Of a stretch of DNA of 64,000 nucleotides, positions 36,630 to 45,050 are shown piece by piece (position 1 is the stretch's first letter; every line of letters begins with the position of its first letter). The notes under the pieces are model-generated. The model was not told where the DNA came from. It saw only the letters and a program-made list of their open reading frames with translations, and did not search any database. The DNA comes from Candidatus Heimdallarchaeota archaeon. GTDB lineage: Archaea > Asgardarchaeota > Heimdallarchaeia > Heimdallarchaeales > Heimdallarchaeaceae. Made by a program: the position numbers and the translations under genes. The stretch is taken from the NCBI GenBank assembly GCA_019057375.1, contig DXJF01000032.1, positions 1-64,000 on the forward strand, given 5' to 3'.

Positions 36630-37403
36630 TCATGTTTCTTTTGATGATTTAGTTAAGAATCTATGACTCACATAATCTATATATCCATTATCAGATATGG
36701 TAGAATGAAGTTCAAACAGTTTGTCTCTATATTTTTCAACTGTAAATCCAGGTATTTCCCAAGGAGCCGCTAATAGATAAAAAACGATTGCACCAACATC
36801 AAAAAATCGAGTTATCGGAAAACACTCTTTCTTCTTGAGAATCTTAAATCCATTATTTTCTAATTGATTTGCTGCGAAATCTGCAGTCCATTCTGGATAC
36901 TCACTCACTTTATCATTAAGGAAAAATTCTCTTAATCCATCATCATTGTGAGCTCCTACTTGCTGAGTTAGAAAAATGCCTTCTTCTGAGAGTATTCTAT
37001 GAACCTCAGTAGGAGAATAAGATTCATGTCTATTGATAATTAAATCAAATGAACCATCTTCAAAAGGTAGGTTCTCATCACCACTAATTTGAGTTACTTC
37101 TACTCCTAAGGGTTCTAGTCTTTTTTTTGCAATGGGAACATTTGGTTCATAAGCTTCAGTGGCATATGTTTTTTCTGGAAAAGGTTGTAACATTGATAGA
37201 AACTCTCCACCACCAGTTCCCATGTCAAGTAAGGAATTAGCTTTTCTTAAAACTGGAAGTATTTCTGAGGTATAACTCCATATTAATGGTGCTGTAACCA
37301 TTCTATTATCAACATAGGAAAAATCCCATCCAAGAAAAGGTCTTTGGGCTTCTTTAATTAATAGTTCAAATGTTTCTTTACAACTTCTAGAATCATCATC
37401 CAT
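36630..37403 (-). CDS. Class I SAM-dependent methyltransferase
   Basis: GWDFSY, LLDMGTGGGE, FDLIINRHE, FLTQQVG. Confidence 0.92.
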   Translation of the reverse strand: MDDDSRSCKETFELLIKEAQRPFLGWDFSYVDNRMVTAPLIWSYTSEILPVLRKANSLLDMGTGGGEFLSMLQPFPEKTYATEAYEPNVPIAKKRLEPLGVEVTQISGDENLPFEDGSFDLIINRHESYSPTEVHRILSEEGIFLTQQVGAHNDDGLREFFLNDKVSEYPEWTADFAANQLENNGFKILKKKECFPITRFFDVGAIVFYLLAAPWEIPGFTVEKYRDKLFELHSTISDNGYIDYVSHRFLTKSSKET

Positions 37404-37534
37404 ATTACAAACTTGAGAGACATATTAATGATTTTTATGTATGGAGAGACCATTTGTATGCATTCAAAAATAGTGACTTAAATGGAAAAAGATCAAGAAA
37501 TTTTATTAAAAAAATAGAATGAAAATAGAATAAT

Positions 37535-37918
37535 TTACTCTACTTTTACTTCTTTTTCATATTTCCAAAAACCGTGTATGTTACAATAAGATGTTGCAAT
37601 AAGCTTTCCTGGTTTGTCAGTTTTTAGTTGAAAAACTGTATAGGGTTCTGAATAAACACCACTTGTATCGGGCCCTTTTATTGAAGCTCCATGAGCATCA
37701 AAATTGACTAAACCAAGTTGATATGGGTATTTTTCATCTTCTGGCCAGAACATTAGTTTTATCCAAGAAATATGATGTTCTGTTTTGTTAGGATGAGCAA
37801 TTTCTTTTCCAACACTAACAGTTACAAGAGTTTTTTCACCAGCTTTAATGACATCTGTAATTTCAATAACAGGTACATGTTTTTCTGTTTTCCAATCAGC
37901 TGTTCCATATAATTCCAT
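37535..37918 (-). CDS. Class II superoxide-reductase-like (SORL/desulfoferrodoxin) protein
   Basis: EKHVP, HPNKTEHHISWI, SYCNIHG. Confidence 0.92.
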   Translation of the reverse strand: MELYGTADWKTEKHVPVIEITDVIKAGEKTLVTVSVGKEIAHPNKTEHHISWIKLMFWPEDEKYPYQLGLVNFDAHGASIKGPDTSGVYSEPYTVFQLKTDKPGKLIATSYCNIHGFWKYEKEVKVE

Positions 37919-37999
37919 GGGAATCACCTAACTCTAGAAAAAACATAGCTATAAATAAATTTCTTGGAAAGACAAAAATAGAAGTAAATAGGAAAAAAA

Positions 38000-38497
38000 T
38001 TACTCGTCGTAATCTTGGTAAGTTGTTGTCAGGGGTTCATCTTCATCTTCAGTATTTTCATCGTCATCGTCTAGTACTGCTGCTTCAAGAGGAACAGTAG
38101 ATGATGCAACCACAGGTGTAGATTCACCACTTTCATGTGCTTTGATATCGGTTTCAGCTTCCTTAAGTTCAAATTCAAGTTTTTCTAAATCTTCTTCAAC
38201 TTTGAGTATTTTTCTTTCAAGTTCTTTAAGCTTATAATCCCTTTCTGCAATAGAAGCTTCCTTTTTCTTTGCTGAAACTTCACTTTTCAAAGCTTTATCT
38301 GGTTGTCCTTGATTTTCAAACTCTGTTTTCTTGACAAGATTTTCTTCTCGCTCTCTGTTATCTTTTGCTCTTTTTTTGTTTTCATTAGCAATCTTTTTCT
38401 TAAGATCTTGAAGGTTACCAAGCTTCTTGTAGATGTCTTCTTCAATGTCAAACTTTTTCTCTAAAAGCTTGAAATAATGAACATTTGACTCACTCAT
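38000..38497 (-). CDS. Hypothetical coiled-coil protein with acidic tail
   Basis: Long K/E heptad helices, then DDDDENTEDEDE. Confidence 0.75.
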   Translation of the reverse strand: MSESNVHYFKLLEKKFDIEEDIYKKLGNLQDLKKKIANENKKRAKDNREREENLVKKTEFENQGQPDKALKSEVSAKKKEASIAERDYKLKELERKILKVEEDLEKLEFELKEAETDIKAHESGESTPVVASSTVPLEAAVLDDDDENTEDEDEPLTTTYQDYDE

Positions 38498-38689
38498 AAT
38501 AATCCAGTAAAGTAAGGAAGAACACATTTTTAAGTTTACTCAATTAGGGGACAAAAGTGTGAAAACAGTAAATTTGTGCTTACTTAGTAGCATGGTTATT
38601 CAATCGAGATAGAAAAGAAAAATTTAAGAATAAAGTAGAATGGAAAAAAGTGTAGAGGATTAATCTACAAAAAAAATCAAAGAAGAGTC

Positions 38690-38815: not shown

Positions 38816-39571
38816 TCATCTTTTTCTACCAATTGCATAAAAAACTGGAATGAAAATAGTTCTTTTATTTTCATTAATTACCTCTTTTTCCACTATTAGT
38901 TTATTTCTAAATTCTTCTTTTGATATTAATTGAGATTCATATATAAGTCTCCATTCTTGTTCAATATTCATCAAGAGGTTTTCTTTATCCCATACTTGTG
39001 CAATTACACCGATTGAAGTATCAAGGTTAGCTGTTTCGAATAAAGTTCTGAGTTTTCTTCCCATAAAAGGATCAGCACCTTCACGCTTCAGATAATCTTT
39101 ATGATACTTCCCCAAATTATATTCTGGGTACTCTAACCAACCCCCATAATCCGGTTCTGCTAAAGCTGCTACAAACCCTCGTTTCTTACACACTCTACTC
39201 ATTTCCTTAATCGCTTTCTCAGGTTTAGATAACCACAGAAAGAGATATTGACAGAGCACAATGTCAAACATACCAGATCTCATAGAGAGTTTCTCAACAT
39301 TTTCCCGCTTAAAGTTAACATTTTTCACGTTCTCTTCTGCTAAGGAAAGCATGGATTTATCATGATCAACTGCAGTAATTTTTGCTCGAGTTCTTTTCCT
39401 TAGTTCATCTGTAATAACACCTGTCCCACAACCCACCTCTAAAACTCTTTTAGCCCCTCGTAAGTTTATTTGAGGATATATTTTGTTCCTAACAGATTCA
39501 GTCCAGTTAGCTTGGCGGACAAATTGCTCATGGATTTGTGGACCCCAGTTAACGTCTTCATTGTTTGTCAT
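38816..39571 (-). CDS. Class I SAM-dependent methyltransferase, third gene of the radical SAM operon
   Basis: VLEVGCGTG, AVDHD, FDIVLCQ, EPDYGG, GADPFMGR; ATGA overlap with the radical SAM gene. Confidence 0.92.
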   Translation of the reverse strand: MTNNEDVNWGPQIHEQFVRQANWTESVRNKIYPQINLRGAKRVLEVGCGTGVITDELRKRTRAKITAVDHDKSMLSLAEENVKNVNFKRENVEKLSMRSGMFDIVLCQYLFLWLSKPEKAIKEMSRVCKKRGFVAALAEPDYGGWLEYPEYNLGKYHKDYLKREGADPFMGRKLRTLFETANLDTSIGVIAQVWDKENLLMNIEQEWRLIYESQLISKEEFRNKLIVEKEVINENKRTIFIPVFYAIGRKR

Positions 39572-40872
39572 GAAAATGCTTCCTTACAAATATACGAGGG
39601 GGACGCATAATTCAAAGGACACCCACCTCCACAAATCTCCCTTTCTGGGCAATCTAAACATTCTTCCTGGAGGTAGTTCATTTTGCGAAGATTTTTAGAT
39701 ATCTTATTATTCCAAATCTTTCTCCATTTAGTTGTTAGTATATTTCCTAAAGGTTCAAAGTAGCTTTGACAAGGAAGTACAGCTCCATCAGGTTCAATAG
39801 CCATTGCGATATGAGCTGCTGAACACTGTTTCATCCCTAATCCTTTTTCAATAGGGTTGAAGTCACAATATCTTGTAGGGCTATACCAAATGAAAGACAG
39901 CTCTTTTTTCTCTGCAGTTTTTAGAATCCTTGTAAGAACTTCATCTAGTTCTTCAAGAGGGAGAGCTAATTCTTCTTGTTTTCCTCCACCGGATTTTATG
40001 ATGCTATTTGCAGCAAAATGATCAATTCCCAAAGAACCTAAAAATTCAACTGTCTTTTCTATTTCTTTGACATTAAATGGAGTTAGGGTAGTATTTGTCA
40101 TGATATAAACTGGAGTTGGGATAACATTCTTTATTCCTTGTACAGTTTCTTCCCATGCCCCTTTAACTCCACACAATTGGTCATGAATTTTTGAATCATG
40201 ACTCTCTATTGTTAATTGAAAATGATCAATCCCGGCTGTAACAAGCTTATCTACTAGAGCCTTATTTTTTAGTTTTCGACCGTTAGTAATCAAGCCTGTT
40301 ATAATCCCTAAATCTTCAGCATATTCCACCAAATCTGGTAGGTCTTTTCTTAGGGTAGGTTCTCCTCCTGTAAATGTAACATGTGGGATACCTATGTCCC
40401 ACAGCTTATCTAGAACCAACTTCCATTCGTCTGTTGATAGTTCCTTAATTTCTCTTGGGGTTTCAACGTAACATTTGGTACATTTACTATTGCATTTGTA
40501 TGTTAGAGCTAAATCCATCCTTAATGGAGCAGAGAAGGGAGTTTCGTTTAAAGGATTTATATCTTGAGATAAGTGTTGAACAGGATCTATATCAGGTGTT
40601 GTCATAAGTTCATTAATAGATGTTTTAAGCTCACGAAGATCAATTTCTAACTGTTCAATAGAAACTCTGTATTTCTTTTTCATTTCGAATAGAATATCAA
40701 TATCTTCTTTTCCTTCAATAATCCGTGAAACAAAATCTGTTGCAGTTTTGTTTAGATGAAGGATTCTTGTGGCATTAACTAGTAATAAACCTGTTCCACC
40801 CTTTTCCTTTCTAAGATGCATTCGAGCTGTGGTATCAAGATTTCTTTGATGATAAACTCTATATTTACCCAT
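39568..40872 (-). CDS. Radical SAM/SPASM maturase with N-terminal PqqD/RRE-like domain
   Basis: N-terminal ILHLNKTATDF...KKYRVSIEQLEIDL; CNSKCTKC; FTGGEP; SPASM CSAA...EPDGAVLPC...CLDC.....CGGGCP. Start at ATG 40872 (TAATG overlap with the upstream gene). Confidence 0.93.
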   Translation of the reverse strand: MGKYRVYHQRNLDTTARMHLRKEKGGTGLLLVNATRILHLNKTATDFVSRIIEGKEDIDILFEMKKKYRVSIEQLEIDLRELKTSINELMTTPDIDPVQHLSQDINPLNETPFSAPLRMDLALTYKCNSKCTKCYVETPREIKELSTDEWKLVLDKLWDIGIPHVTFTGGEPTLRKDLPDLVEYAEDLGIITGLITNGRKLKNKALVDKLVTAGIDHFQLTIESHDSKIHDQLCGVKGAWEETVQGIKNVIPTPVYIMTNTTLTPFNVKEIEKTVEFLGSLGIDHFAANSIIKSGGGKQEELALPLEELDEVLTRILKTAEKKELSFIWYSPTRYCDFNPIEKGLGMKQCSAAHIAMAIEPDGAVLPCQSYFEPLGNILTTKWRKIWNNKISKNLRKMNYLQEECLDCPEREICGGGCPLNYASPSYICKEAFS

Positions 40873-42554
40873 TATCTTCCACCTCCAGCACAAGCGCAAG
40901 CACAAGCACATGCACAAGCACAGCCCCCTCCACTGTAACTTCTACCACCACTACTTGATCTAGCTGGTGGAGGTCGAGTTATATTTTTCACAGAATCACG
41001 TAATGAGCTAGGTTTATGCACCAACCCAGACATGAAACTTTGGACAGGAGCTATTTGAGATATTCTTCCCTGTCGACTTATTCGCATAAAAGGTCCTATA
41101 CTTTTATGACTTCTGCGAGATATGCTTGAACCTATTGCATAATAATAGTAACTTCTCACATACCAACCAGGATAATAATAAGTTCCCCCATATTTTTCCA
41201 AACGCTGGTCATAATTTTCATCTACCATAATCCAAAGGAAGGCATTAAGCAATTCTGGATTTGATTTACTCATTTCCTGCCATGCTTTATCTATTATTGA
41301 TTCGTAATAATCCCTTGTTTTTCTAGCAGAAAAGCCTTTCATTTTTTTAGCAACACTTTTTATTTGAGCAACTAGTGCATTTTTCAAATCAGTTTGATGA
41401 ACAGGTTCTTTGGGAATTGCTCCTGAAGCTGCTCCTCTTATCCACTTTTCATCTTCTTTGTTTCTTTTTCTTATACCAACAATCATTGTTTTATGTGGTT
41501 TTGAAAATTCAGCTATAGTTGCATCTGTAGCTGCAATATCTAATCTTAACTCAGGTTTCCTTGTTCTAATATTTAGATACCCTTTTTCCATTAATTCAAA
41601 TAGCATTAAAGAAGCAACTTGCGTTAAAGGTCTTTCAAAAAGTAATGCAACTTCAGAGGGGGCTAGATCTTCTCTAATTCCTCCTCCCAATGAGCTAATA
41701 GAGGGCGGGAGATATCGTCTAGAGTTTCTTATTTTTCTAAATATGAATATAATCACAGCTAGTACAATTATACAAGCTATTGCAGTTGCTATGGGGTATC
41801 TTATCATACTGCCCCATACTAATAAAGTCCAAAACGAATTAAATGTTTTTGAATACTCTTCAGGAAATGCAACCCCAACTTCATAGCTGAAATAAGGTGT
41901 TCCTATTGATGAAAACTGTACATAAGGACCCTCAGGTGAACTTGCTACCTTGGTAAAATCTGCTATATCTGCAATTCTATAATCAACTTCCGAAATATCT
42001 GTGAGATCTTCAGGAAAATAAAATCTAACAGTTCTATTAGTTGAGCCAAATGAATAATCTAACTCATACCATGTTTGATAAAATACAACTGAAGCTAAGC
42101 CTTCTTGATTATCACTGTAAACCATTTTAGGATTGTGACATTCAACCTCTAAGATTCCAGTTTGACCAGCATAAATATAACCTACTTCATCAAGCCAAAT
42201 CTCTACACCGATATCAATGTATTCACTTTTTCTTATATCTGTTACTTCTATCCCATTTAACCAAGCTCTTACAGATTTTAGCTGATAGTAAACATTAGGG
42301 AAACCAACATCAACTACATCTATTGCTTGACCTTCTGAAGGGTGGTTAACAAACTCAAATCTATAATAAATGTCGATGGACCCATCATCAAGTATTGATA
42401 TTTCAGTGTATATTGATGGAACCTCAAAGTAGTAAGCTTCCATTCTTGGATTAGACTCAGATATATCATTTTCTCTTGCTATTGAAAATGATGGTGATAA
42501 GCTGATAGTTAAAATTACAACACTAAAAACCACAAATATTTTTTTCAAAGTCAT
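40872..42554 (-). CDS. Single-pass membrane protein (DUF2207-like architecture) ending in a GGG(CA)6GGGR tail; putative radical SAM substrate
   Basis: Signal peptide, beta-rich ectodomain, TM followed by RKIRNSRR, cytoplasmic domain, Ser/Gly linker, CACACACACACAGGGR*. Confidence 0.9.
   Translation of the reverse strand: MTLKKIFVVFSVVILTISLSPSFSIARENDISESNPRMEAYYFEVPSIYTEISILDDGSIDIYYRFEFVNHPSEGQAIDVVDVGFPNVYYQLKSVRAWLNGIEVTDIRKSEYIDIGVEIWLDEVGYIYAGQTGILEVECHNPKMVYSDNQEGLASVVFYQTWYELDYSFGSTNRTVRFYFPEDLTDISEVDYRIADIADFTKVASSPEGPYVQFSSIGTPYFSYEVGVAFPEEYSKTFNSFWTLLVWGSMIRYPIATAIACIIVLAVIIFIFRKIRNSRRYLPPSISSLGGGIREDLAPSEVALLFERPLTQVASLMLFELMEKGYLNIRTRKPELRLDIAATDATIAEFSKPHKTMIVGIRKRNKEDEKWIRGAASGAIPKEPVHQTDLKNALVAQIKSVAKKMKGFSARKTRDYYESIIDKAWQEMSKSNPELLNAFLWIMVDENYDQRLEKYGGTYYYPGWYVRSYYYYAIGSSISRRSHKSIGPFMRISRQGRISQIAPVQSFMSGLVHKPSSLRDSVKNITRPPPARSSSGGRSYSGGGCACACACACACAGGGR
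40887..40922 (-). repeat. Six-fold Cys-Ala dipeptide repeat
   Basis: TGT GCT TGT GCA TGT GCT TGT GCT TGC GCT TGT GCT; all variation is synonymous. Confidence 0.95.
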
Positions 42555-42703: not shown

Positions 42704-43453
42704 CTAGAAGAACAAATGCTCTTCAGCTTCTTTGTCCTTTTTTTTCTTTCTTCGTTTTCTTTTCTTAATAGGTTCTTCTTTAGGCTTAATAGGTTCATCC
42801 ACATCAATTTCTTTATCTAGTTTAGTAGCTACCTCTGCCAAAGTTTTGTATAACAAAGAACGCATTTTGAATTTTGTCTCTTCATCAAAAATAGTTTTTA
42901 AAGCAGTATAAACAGTTTGATTTGCATATTTAGGTATTATACTTAGAGCAATTTGTCTAGGATATACATCGTGGTCATTCTTGATGGTTTCCAAGATTAA
43001 TTTTCTCATTACAGCTTTTTTTAGTTTCTTTCTTTCGTGCAATTTCCTAAGGGCAGCAGATCTAACAACATCGTTTAAATCATTTTTCGAAATATTCAGA
43101 AGCATCTCATCAGTATCCGAAGTAGACATGTCACCAAGTGATTCAGTTATAGCTAATCTAACATTTCTATCTCTTTCATAAGCATAAAGCTCACTCAATT
43201 TTTGGGCTATATCACTATCTTCAAATTTTGTAACGGTCATTATTGCTTTAATGCGAATTTTATAGTATTTGTCATTCTCACTTACCTGAATAAGAAAATC
43301 TACCAAATTCTGATTTTTTTGTTCATTTCCTAATTTATCCAATAACTCAAATTTAGCAAAATCGGGAGAATTATTGAATTTCTTCATCATCTTAGCTAAT
43401 TCTTGTTCCATTACATCTAAATTATAGTTTGTGCTTTTATAATTTACTAACAA
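42704..43453 (-). CDS. HEAT-repeat protein with basic C-terminal patch
   Basis: KIRIKAI, NVRLAITESLG, VVRSAAL repeats; KKRKRRKKKK near the C-terminus. Confidence 0.8.
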   Translation of the reverse strand: MLVNYKSTNYNLDVMEQELAKMMKKFNNSPDFAKFELLDKLGNEQKNQNLVDFLIQVSENDKYYKIRIKAIMTVTKFEDSDIAQKLSELYAYERDRNVRLAITESLGDMSTSDTDEMLLNISKNDLNDVVRSAALRKLHERKKLKKAVMRKLILETIKNDHDVYPRQIALSIIPKYANQTVYTALKTIFDEETKFKMRSLLYKTLAEVATKLDKEIDVDEPIKPKEEPIKKRKRRKKKKDKEAEEHLFF

Positions 43454-43518
43454 TCCAGTTCCAATTTTTCTTAAATTGGGGTTTTTATAACATGGTAAAT
43501 GAAATATAATGACTCAAA

Positions 43519-44073
43519 TTGACCACGTTACAGGATACTGAAAATATAGAAAAAGAGGGCTTTGCCATCGTATATTTTGCTGATAGTGGTTTTGAGATTT
43601 TCGCTTCAGATTTAGACGATATAAAACTCGAAACAATGCTTACAACGTATCCTACATTAATGGGAATCATGCAAAACCAAGAAATAAAGGGATTAGCATC
43701 AACAAAAATCAATGAAAAATCATTCTTGTTAGCTTTTGCTATAAACCTGAAAAACCTAAATGCAAAGGATACAAGGTTAAAACTAAAGACAGCAACAATT
43801 ATTAATTTTATTGTATCAAGAGAGATATATAAACAGCTAGTGGTTAACTTTGATGAATTCGAGAAGTTTCTAGAAAAATACTTTAAACCAATTGTTTTTC
43901 TCTTTGATCTTTATGCTGTAGACCTATCAAGAATAATACCTTTATTTCTTGAAAAACAGAAACGAGAGGAAAAACTGAAGAGAATAAAAGAGATAAAAAA
44001 GGATAATATCTCAATTGCAACAGAGTTTAACAAATGGTTAACTAGTACAATTTTTGAAAAGAAAAAAGGATGA
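43519..44073 (+). CDS. Stand-alone longin/uDENN-like domain protein
   Basis: GFAIVYF..SG.EI..SDL ... AFAI..K...KD.R pattern aligns by eye with the C-terminal domain of 14075-15865. Confidence 0.65.
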   Translation: MTTLQDTENIEKEGFAIVYFADSGFEIFASDLDDIKLETMLTTYPTLMGIMQNQEIKGLASTKINEKSFLLAFAINLKNLNAKDTRLKLKTATIINFIVSREIYKQLVVNFDEFEKFLEKYFKPIVFLFDLYAVDLSRIIPLFLEKQKREEKLKRIKEIKKDNISIATEFNKWLTSTIFEKKKG

Positions 44074-44135
44074 TATTTAATGTTATTCCAATAATTTTAT
44101 TACGTCCCTAAGCATTCGATGGTTAGTGACGTTTT

Positions 44136-45050
44136 ATGCTAGAAATAAGATTCCATGGCCGAGGAGGATCAGGCTCAGTTCTAGCTTCAAGAGCTTTGGC
44201 CAAGGCTGCTTTCTATGAAGGAAAATATGCTGTTTCTTTTCCTTCTTTTGGTGCTGAGAGAAGAGGATCACTTGTTCTAGCATTTGCACGTATTAATGAA
44301 AGAAAAATCTTCAGAAGAACCCAAATCTACACTCCAGATATTGTTGTTGTTCTTAATGAAGATATTCCAGAGTTAATTGATATTATCGAAGGATTAAAAC
44401 CTGAAGGTATAGTTGTTTTAAATTCAACAAAAAAGCCAGAACAGATTATTTTGTCTAAATCCACTAATGTAGGGGTTGTTGAAGCCACAAAAATTGCTCA
44501 AGATATTCTTGATGAACCCATAACAAACACTGCAATGTTAGGTGCCTTAGTAAAGAGTACTGGTATAATATCTTTGGAAAATCTTGAGAAAGGAATTTTT
44601 TCAGTTTTCAAAAAAAGATTAGGAGAAACAATAGCAAGAAAAAATGTTGAAATCGCTCGAATTGCGTATGAAGAAACCATACTAGGAGTCTCACAAGCAG
44701 GTAAAACTTATGTTGAAATGCGTTCGTGGCTACCTACAGTTGATGAACTCCCGTTAGGAACAATTCTTCCAAAATCAGCTCTTCCAAATGGACAAGAAAT
44801 TGGTCCGGGTGCTGCAAAACGTAGGAAAACTGGAACGTGGAGTAAAGAAAAAGCAGTAGTTAATCAAGAAAAATGCATTGAGTGTCTCAAATGCTTGTTT
44901 CATTGTCCTGAGGGTACAATCTATAGAAATAATGGGAAAGTTAAAGTAAACAATATTTATTGCAAAACATGTGGAATTTGTGTTGCTGTTTGCCCAGTTA
45001 ATGCTATTTCAATAGAAGAAATAGAAGATTATACAGAAATCATACCTTGA
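44136..45050 (+). CDS. 2-oxoacid:ferredoxin oxidoreductase gamma subunit fused to the delta (ferredoxin) subunit
   Basis: EIRFHGRGG.G, FGAERRG, NTAMLGA; C-terminal CIECLKCLFHCP and CKTCGICVAVCP. Confidence 0.92.
   Translation: MLEIRFHGRGGSGSVLASRALAKAAFYEGKYAVSFPSFGAERRGSLVLAFARINERKIFRRTQIYTPDIVVVLNEDIPELIDIIEGLKPEGIVVLNSTKKPEQIILSKSTNVGVVEATKIAQDILDEPITNTAMLGALVKSTGIISLENLEKGIFSVFKKRLGETIARKNVEIARIAYEETILGVSQAGKTYVEMRSWLPTVDELPLGTILPKSALPNGQEIGPGAAKRRKTGTWSKEKAVVNQEKCIECLKCLFHCPEGTIYRNNGKVKVNNIYCKTCGICVAVCPVNAISIEEIEDYTEIIP

Follow-up and report, generated by a model that had tools for sequence, protein, structure and literature searches.

What does a radical S-adenosylmethionine (SAM) enzyme with the features of a peptide maturase act on when no precursor peptide is encoded beside it? 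This question is raised by an operon at positions 38816-42554 of a 64,000-nucleotide stretch of DNA (positions 1-64,000 of contig DXJF01000032.1, assembly GCA_019057375.1; hereafter the window) from Candidatus Heimdallarchaeota archaeon. Analysis of the open reading frames (ORFs) in the window reveals three minus-strand genes with overlapping stop and start codons, encoding a 560-aa membrane protein, a radical SAM (rSAM) enzyme, and a methyltransferase. The membrane protein stop overlaps the rSAM start in TAATG at 40874-40870, and the rSAM stop overlaps the methyltransferase start in ATGA at 39571-39568. An earlier note, made from the DNA letters, had described three co-oriented, translationally coupled genes without a short precursor ORF, and both points hold: the coordinates and overlaps match exactly, and neither a plausible small precursor ORF nor a tRNA was found within the operon or next to it, and a hidden one of either kind was rejected. 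The GC content is ~33%, and the nearest relatives are Heimdallarchaeota metagenome-assembled genomes (MAGs). The operon consists of the trio only, leaving the 560-aa protein and the methyltransferase as the sole constant neighbors of the rSAM enzyme. As set out below, the comparative evidence suggests that the enzyme probably modifies a Cys-Ala repeat at the C terminus of the 560-aa protein.

The C terminus of this protein reads ...SYSGGGCACACACACACAGGGR*, in which a Gly/Ser-rich linker precedes the repeat to give the ending SSSGGRSYSGGG-CACACACACACA-GGGR*, i.e., GGG-(CA)6-GGGR. Within a large protein family, the tail is the stretch that is conserved best, and CACACA(G)CACACAGGGR ends all full-length homologs, down to 27% identity. 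Because searches seeded with words or patterns could favor the tail, the search was repeated with residues 1-540 only against 1.84 billion representatives (E ≤ 1e-3). This tail-less query matched 504 clusters at 50% identity, and 121 of its 150 best matches end in the tail, the remainder being truncated fragments except for three near-variants. Relatives are encoded in at least 295 species genomes, and the locus counts given here refer to the 80 best loci. All 80 carry the tail, but a tail pattern had been used to search for these loci. When tail DNA from Heimdall archaea, Methanomassiliicoccaceae, Thermococci, Anaerolineae, and Zixibacteria is aligned, all first and second codon positions are invariant. 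A chance microsatellite is thus ruled out, because the tail is kept across phyla with variation at third codon positions only. Searches for the exact tail string found no occurrence in the literature searched, and those for Asgard rSAM systems that make peptides that are synthesized by the ribosome and post-translationally modified (RiPPs) found nothing relevant.

The tail protein and the rSAM enzyme are co-inherited near-obligately. An rSAM ortholog is present in 74 of the 80 loci, mostly directly downstream of the tail gene, with identities of 35-86% in most loci and 31-33% in four. Among the six loci without one, two are on short contigs and the other four belong to genomes that encode a 578-644-bit ortholog elsewhere. 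These 80 loci include archaea (Heimdall-, Hod-, and Promethearchaeota, Methanomassiliicoccaceae, and a Thermococci MAG) as well as bacteria (many Anaerolineae, Acidobacteriota, Aminicenantes, Zixibacteria, Cloacimonadota, and others), and cultured carriers exist among the Anaerolineae (Bellilinea caldifistulae, Ornatilinea apprima, and Leptolinea sp. HRD-7). Presence and absence were also compared in samples of 251 Asgard and 151 Anaerolineae genomes. In four Asgard families, the tail protein and the enzyme occur in the same genomes (23/25 vs 23/25, 9/17 vs 9/17, 4/54 vs 4/54, and 1/1 vs 1/1). Within the Anaerolineae, all 22 tail-positive genomes have a high-scoring rSAM, and the tail protein is present in 22 of the 24 genomes with such an enzyme. 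The earlier note had held that tail homologs occurring mostly without the enzyme would count against the tail as its substrate, and the opposite pattern is seen: adjacency in 74 of 80 loci, an ortholog elsewhere in each of the four testable exceptions, and complete pairing from the tail side in the Anaerolineae.

The architecture of the rSAM enzyme, with an N-terminal RiPP recognition element (RRE), a CxxxCxxC motif, and a SPASM domain, is that of RiPP maturases of the SkfB, SuiB, CteB, and AlbA type (Table 1). Pfam matches to Radical_SAM (PF04055, 89 bits) and SPASM (PF13186, 39.6 bits) and the presence of CNSKCTKC, the CxxxCxxC motif that binds the radical SAM [4Fe-4S] cluster, agree with the assignment made in the earlier note. 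In an alignment of 30 orthologs (A2), C128, C132, C135, and Y136 are invariant, where residues are numbered from 40875, which gives values one above those obtained from the ATG. The 7-Cys SPASM motif for two auxiliary clusters is also conserved: C351, C369 (inside an invariant P-C-Q-S), C406, C409, C415, and C419 are invariant, a C-terminal Cys is kept as well, and C337 is found in at least 90% of ortholog sequences.

The N-terminal domain was likewise correctly called an RRE. It carries invariant R-x-H-L-R and I-N-A...H-L-N-x-T-A motifs in the 30 orthologs, 23 of which match PqqD (PF05402; best E 3e-9). A profile search matched SkfB from position 15 (1e-31), PqqE, SuiB, CteB, and anSME, along with the stand-alone RRE protein TfuB1 (6jx3_B, E 5.5e-4). 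An AlphaFold2 (AF2) model of the enzyme, with a pLDDT (predicted local distance difference test) score of 85.2 and a predicted template modeling (pTM) score of 0.87, shows strands at residues 7-41 and helices at 43-92, followed by a TIM-like core and the SPASM domain, and the whole length of the model superposes on SuiB, SkfB, and CteB. Foldseek ranks SkfB (8e-21), SuiB (template modeling [TM] score 0.72, full length), and CteB first; the best full-length matches are RiPP cross-linking maturases. The short precursor peptide expected near such maturases was sought as a conserved small ORF, and none was found.

The enzyme reaches no curated NCBIfam cut-off. Membership in the PqqE family (TIGR02109), the best match, was rejected (145.3 bits vs 381), as was membership in NirJ/AhbD (scores far under the cut-offs), the CrpC family TIGR04463 (31.3 bits vs 525), the ACGX-system family TIGR04340 (63.6 bits vs 400), and the StsB sactisynthase family NF045574 (91 bits vs 625).

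Table 1. Features of the operon and of related loci. Plain coordinates are window positions; those with an L prefix belong to related loci.
Feature	Coordinates	Strand	Basis
Tail-bearing single-pass membrane protein, 560 aa	40872..42554	-	ORF
RRE-radical SAM-SPASM enzyme, 434 aa from ATG	39568..40872	-	ORF, Pfam, profile, fold
Class I SAM-dependent methyltransferase, 251 aa	38816..39571	-	ORF, Pfam
Invariant tail CACACACACACAGGGR, residues 545-560, proposed substrate ("core")	40875..40922	-	Alignments, tail DNA, AF2
Conserved segment upstream of Gly/Ser linker, residues ~512-530	40965..41021	-	Alignments A1, A3; AF2 helix 515-526
Transmembrane helix, residues ~254-278	41721..41795	-	AF2 helix 241-278, sequence
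Extracytoplasmic beta-sandwich ectodomain, residues ~40-235	41850..42437	-	AF2 secondary structure, Foldseek
N-terminal PqqD-like RRE of the rSAM enzyme, ~residues 6-94, three or four beta-strands then three helices	40591..40857	-	A2, PF05402, AF2
CxxxCxxC motif CNSKCTKC, then invariant Tyr	40471..40494	-	Alignment A2
SPASM domain	39583..39867	-	Alignment A2, PF13186
Sister membrane protein	L086:4447-6615	+	
rSAM enzyme accompanying it	L086:2304-3737	-	
Further sister membrane proteins	L087:9576-11834, L091:1809-3566, L093:7637-9643, L094:9730-11481		
Zn-ribbon protein, examples	L038:7522-7896, L077:7523-7915, L080:5716-6078		Alignment A4
rSAM-like paralog, examples	L077:11053-12213, L038:10936-12201, L069:11129-12289		

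The predicted topology of the 560-aa protein would place the tail within reach of the enzyme. In the AF2 model (m2b33d68083a4; pLDDT 84.8), an N-terminal signal or anchor helix (residues 3-19) precedes the ectodomain, whose beta-sandwich spans 43-231 in the model, and the sequence RKIRNSRR directly follows the transmembrane helix. The C-terminal half is therefore predicted by the positive-inside rule to be cytoplasmic. This half comprises a winged-helix and helical domain extending to residue 526, after which residues 539-560 are disordered (pLDDT below 50). Thus, the disordered tail is predicted to share a compartment with the oxygen-sensitive enzyme. Just upstream of the linker, the conserved segment has the family consensus F-T-x-x-V-T-x-x-T-N-P-x-P, in which P528 is nearly invariant, and the RRE may dock on this segment.

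The 560-aa protein belongs to no Pfam or NCBIfam family, and comparisons of structure and sequence gave the following leads. Foldseek matched its model to ribophorin I/OST1 of the eukaryotic oligosaccharyltransferase (E 9e-9, at a low TM-score and with the domains aligned piecewise) and also to the N-domains of M1 aminopeptidases; there is no Pfam Ribophorin_I match. Its ESM Atlas neighbors include DUF2207 clusters (scores 0.94-0.97, a lead only), and none of 73 family members matches DUF2207 in Pfam (PF09972/PF20990) at E 0.01. TIGR04222 gives weak matches in 5 of these 73 relatives (best E 1e-5), with no match for the window protein and 20.4 bits vs a cut-off of 43 for the Leptolinea ortholog. 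The protein may be distantly DUF2207/TIGR04222-like.

The gene layout, the make-up of the enzyme, the invariance of the tail, and the near-obligate joint inheritance of tail protein and enzyme are established by the comparisons above. The scheme that follows is inferred, both in taking the tail as substrate and in its docking site, bond type, methylation site, and biological role. The 560-aa protein would be inserted in the membrane with its beta-sandwich ectodomain outside and its winged-helix/helical domain inside, the latter followed by the flexible Gly/Ser linker and the 16-residue (CA)6-GGGR tail. The cytoplasmic rSAM/SPASM enzyme would dock via its N-terminal RRE on the C-terminal region, and 5′-deoxyadenosyl-radical chemistry would covalently alter the Cys-Ala tail while it is still attached to the protein. 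The most likely outcome would be intramolecular thioether cross-links, joining Cys sulfur to a nearby Ala or Gly at its alpha carbon (sactionine) or beta carbon (ranthionine). The methyltransferase would then methylate a remaining thiol or the carboxylate of the invariant C-terminal Arg. The product might equip a receptor-like protein with a rigid tag, metal- or redox-active in nature.

Thioether cross-links are most likely the chemistry involved, because C-x-x-A is common to this tail and to a second tail type described below, because Gly flanks the repeat as in the peptide StsA, and because the best full-length matches of the enzyme are cross-linking maturases. The proposal in the earlier note that the Cys-rich tail of the membrane protein is the probable substrate has gained support, of a comparative kind only.

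Additional evidence comes from a sister rSAM clade (33-37% identity, ~350 bits) found in Asgard genomes of the Loki type as well as in eight genomes of Anaerolineae. In five fetched regions, this clade accompanies 583-752-aa membrane proteins that are related in their cytoplasmic half and carry a tail, whereas another fetched region (L092) showed no tail. The sister tails are (CHSA)n/(ACHS)n repeats ending in ...ACVSGGFR, SSF, or SRF. No methyltransferase homolog was seen in the sister loci. An enzyme-substrate pair would be expected to yield this pattern, in which each of two different Cys-repeat tails goes with a separate rSAM clade. The tail types also form supported clades on a quick rSAM tree, which might reflect co-evolution of tail and enzyme; this tree is weak evidence, because related genomes share labels.

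Modification on the scale of a whole protein has precedents. QhpD is an rSAM/SPASM enzyme that makes Cys thioether cross-links in QhpC, a polypeptide that stays part of quinohemoprotein amine dehydrogenase. The ACGX peptides of Haft's system are small peptides of short Ala-Cys-containing repeats paired with an rSAM/SPASM enzyme. This system (TIGR04340) resembles the window in pairing such an enzyme with a short Ala-Cys-repeat product, but its substrates are small peptides and the window enzyme scores far below the family cut-off given above. QhpD and QhpC, which are cited in PMC13692751 and PMC10288494, resemble the proposal in being a protein-scale rSAM/SPASM modification. Unlike the tail protein, QhpC is small and soluble, is exported afterwards, and has neither a repeat tail nor a membrane anchor.

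Another precedent is CrpC of Methanococcus voltae, an RRE-rSAM-SPASM enzyme that makes ranthionine cross-links on CrpA, a 28.8-kDa Cys-repeat protein (PMC13692751, 2026). Both systems are archaeal and set an RRE-rSAM-SPASM enzyme beside a Cys-rich protein with C-terminal Cys repeats, and in CrpC/CrpA the whole protein is modified. However, CrpA is soluble and has ten 17-residue C-x-x-Q/D repeats, whereas the window encodes a membrane protein whose single short tail is (CA)6-GGGR, adds a methyltransferase, and has an enzyme well outside TIGR04463. Two further systems, the hairpin sactipeptides StsB/StsA (with the RRE protein StsC) and BlaB/BlaA, share alternating Cys next to Gly-rich residues and an rSAM/SPASM enzyme (PMC10288494). 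In the StsB reaction, hairpin sactionines connect a CxCxC core with GxGxG, from Cys S to Gly C-alpha (PMC10288494). In contrast to the window system, StsB/StsA has its RRE on a separate protein and a precursor, StsA, that is short and free; at positions 5 and 6, mapped by motif adjacency only, the window system has Q-S where StsB has K-L.

Finally, TIGR04222 membrane proteins with C-terminal Gly/Ser/Cys-rich tails are proposed substrates of MNIO (DUF692) enzymes (PMC12452194), and thus likewise combine a low-complexity Cys-bearing C-terminal tail on a membrane protein with a proposed RiPP-type enzyme. In that case the partner is an MNIO rather than an rSAM enzyme, the tails are variable and predicted to be periplasmic, and the enzyme is missing from about one-third of genomes, whereas the pairing seen here is nearly obligate and the tail invariant. 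The earlier note had spoken of a protein-scale, membrane-tethered RiPP-like system. Comparison supports that description, but the protein-scale idea is anticipated by QhpD, CrpC/CrpA (PMC13692751), and TIGR04222/MNIO (PMC12452194). Because the CrpC/CrpA, StsB, and proposed TIGR04222/MNIO systems exist, protein-scale RiPP-like modification is known in principle; what has not been described is the family itself, together with its breadth, its membrane tether, its methyltransferase, and the invariance of its tail.

Several observations weigh against the tail being the substrate, or against parts of the scheme. The proposed docking motif differs in the CACAG-CACACACA subfamily, so it is not kept in every subfamily. 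The RRE of the window enzyme is alignable but misses Pfam significance (E 0.01), and the domain was called through its orthologs and its fold. C337 may fully ligate the first auxiliary cluster, unlike in CteB, whose open iron site is bound by a Cys of the substrate. The genes are not linked in Asgard family f16, where the enzyme is present in 19/19 genomes vs the tail gene in 10/19; a search for the tail DNA pattern in five f16 genomes with the enzyme only (80-89% complete) did not find it. The nine f16 genomes without a tail gene are 72-89% complete. Where the gene is present, its tail reads SCACACACVSCACACAGGGR; it often lies at contig ends, perhaps broken there because of the repeat, and it is on a different contig from the rSAM-methyltransferase pair (L088 and L089). 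Related genomes are, moreover, non-independent samples. Lastly, metals are classically bound by Cys-x-Cys repeats and by Cys/His repeats such as the sister family has, and thioether formation would consume the thiols.

This last point leads to the best-surviving alternative, which we regard as rather unlikely: that the tail is an unmodified metal or iron-sulfur site of the metallothionein-like CxCxC kind, and that the rSAM enzyme is its partner for another reason, such as exchanging a cluster or electrons, or acting while anchored by its RRE on an unseen small molecule. The six Cys residues, spaced i,i+2, and the (CHSA)n tails, rich in Cys and His, do resemble metal ligands, copper handling is linked to the MNIO-associated bufferins and TIGR04222 proteins (PMC12452194), and CrpA is suspected of metal binding (PMC13692751). 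However, an RRE fused to an rSAM/SPASM core is a signature of peptide-modifying enzymes, and the Heimdall operon holds no other conserved candidate substrate. Moreover, Ala, Gly, and the terminal Arg are as invariant as the Cys residues, which is beyond the demands of metal binding alone, and distinct rSAM clades pair with distinct tail alphabets.

Alternatively, the enzyme might modify the tail by another radical reaction, such as conversion of Cys to formylglycine or dehydroalanine (anSME-like), epimerization of Ala or Cys (EpeE/PoyD-like), or formation of C-C cross-links. Fold and sequence searches also matched anSME and EpeE, and a fully ligated first auxiliary cluster, if C337 provides one, would resemble that of anSME and SuiB rather than CteB. 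We nonetheless consider this quite improbable, given that the tail lacks the anSME motif C-x-[PA]-x-R, that anSME has no RRE, and that the closest full-length matches are RiPP cross-linking enzymes. Least probable of all is that the 540-residue body serves as a giant leader, with the modified 16-20-residue peptide cleaved after the Gly-rich linker and freed as a RiPP: the Gly run does resemble double-Gly leader cleavage sites and RiPP core peptides do lie C-terminally, but the body has a conserved, receptor-like multidomain fold of its own, the tail's predicted place is inside the cell, and ORF clustering over the 80 loci found as widely shared families only a Zn-ribbon protein, the rSAM enzyme, a pseudo-rSAM, and the methyltransferase, the next largest families, which were not annotated, occurring in at most 17-18 loci.

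The methyltransferase is less constant than the other two members. Its assignment to class I in the earlier note agrees with matches to Methyltransf_11 (76.7 bits) and Methyltransf_25 (72.6 bits), which indicate a Rossmann-type SAM-binding domain, and it reached no NCBIfam equivalog. Its inclusion in the cassette stands for this operon but not universally, as an ortholog is co-located in 40 of the 54 loci with at least 5 kb downstream. The best named relative in the Protein Data Bank is LahSB (6uak, E 1.7e-7), a generic match. Because LahSB methylates a lanthipeptide C terminus, the carboxylate of the invariant C-terminal Arg is a candidate methylation site.

Bacterial cassettes are usually larger. 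They add a protein of ~125 aa with two transmembrane helices, a CxxC...CxxC Zn ribbon, and an invariant C-terminal E-E-P-K-W. The gene for this protein immediately precedes that for the tail protein in 65 of the 74 loci with upstream room. The Zn-ribbon protein was not found in the genome from which the window derives (89% complete), and we therefore rejected it as a universal substrate. In Anaerolineae, an rSAM paralog with a PqqD-like N terminus and a partial SPASM domain is encoded between the rSAM enzyme and the methyltransferase. This paralog is probably a non-catalytic partner, because it lacks CxxxCxxC. Some bacterial loci (L009, L011, L041, L046, and L070) have tandem pairs of tail-bearing paralogs, and in the CACAG-CACACACA subfamily the rSAM gene lies upstream, not downstream, of such paralogs.

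If the tail is indeed modified, this would be one of very few RiPP-type radical chemistries on a full-size protein, extending the short list formed by QhpD and CrpC, and among the most widespread such cases, with many phyla represented in the genomes and clusters counted above. We found no such modification described on a membrane protein. In addition, a large family of receptor-like membrane proteins that has no name so far, spread over Asgard archaea and anaerobic bacteria, would acquire a function. The system is tractable, with 16 invariant residues in its proposed substrate, cultured hosts, and a sister system for comparison.

We speculate further, and only tentatively, that the rSAM enzyme (with the methyltransferase in many members) turns the tail into a polycyclic thioether or otherwise remodeled sulfur structure. 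This could serve as a tethered protein-derived cofactor, or as a metal or redox sensor, on the cytoplasmic face of a DUF2207/ribophorin-like single-pass receptor. If true, this would constitute a new class of built-in prosthetic group in Asgard archaea, Chloroflexota, and many other anaerobes, and the (CHSA)n family would represent the same principle written in a second "alphabet."

None of the genes flanking the operon (36630-37927, 38000-38527, and 42704-45050) recurs in related loci. On the minus strand these encode a second class I methyltransferase (36630-37403), a desulfoferrodoxin/neelaredoxin-type protein (37535-37927), an acidic coiled-coil protein (38000-38527), and a HEAT-repeat protein (42704-43453). 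On the plus strand, a 304-aa protein (44136-45050) appears by eye to be a fused gamma-delta subunit of 2-oxoacid:ferredoxin oxidoreductase.

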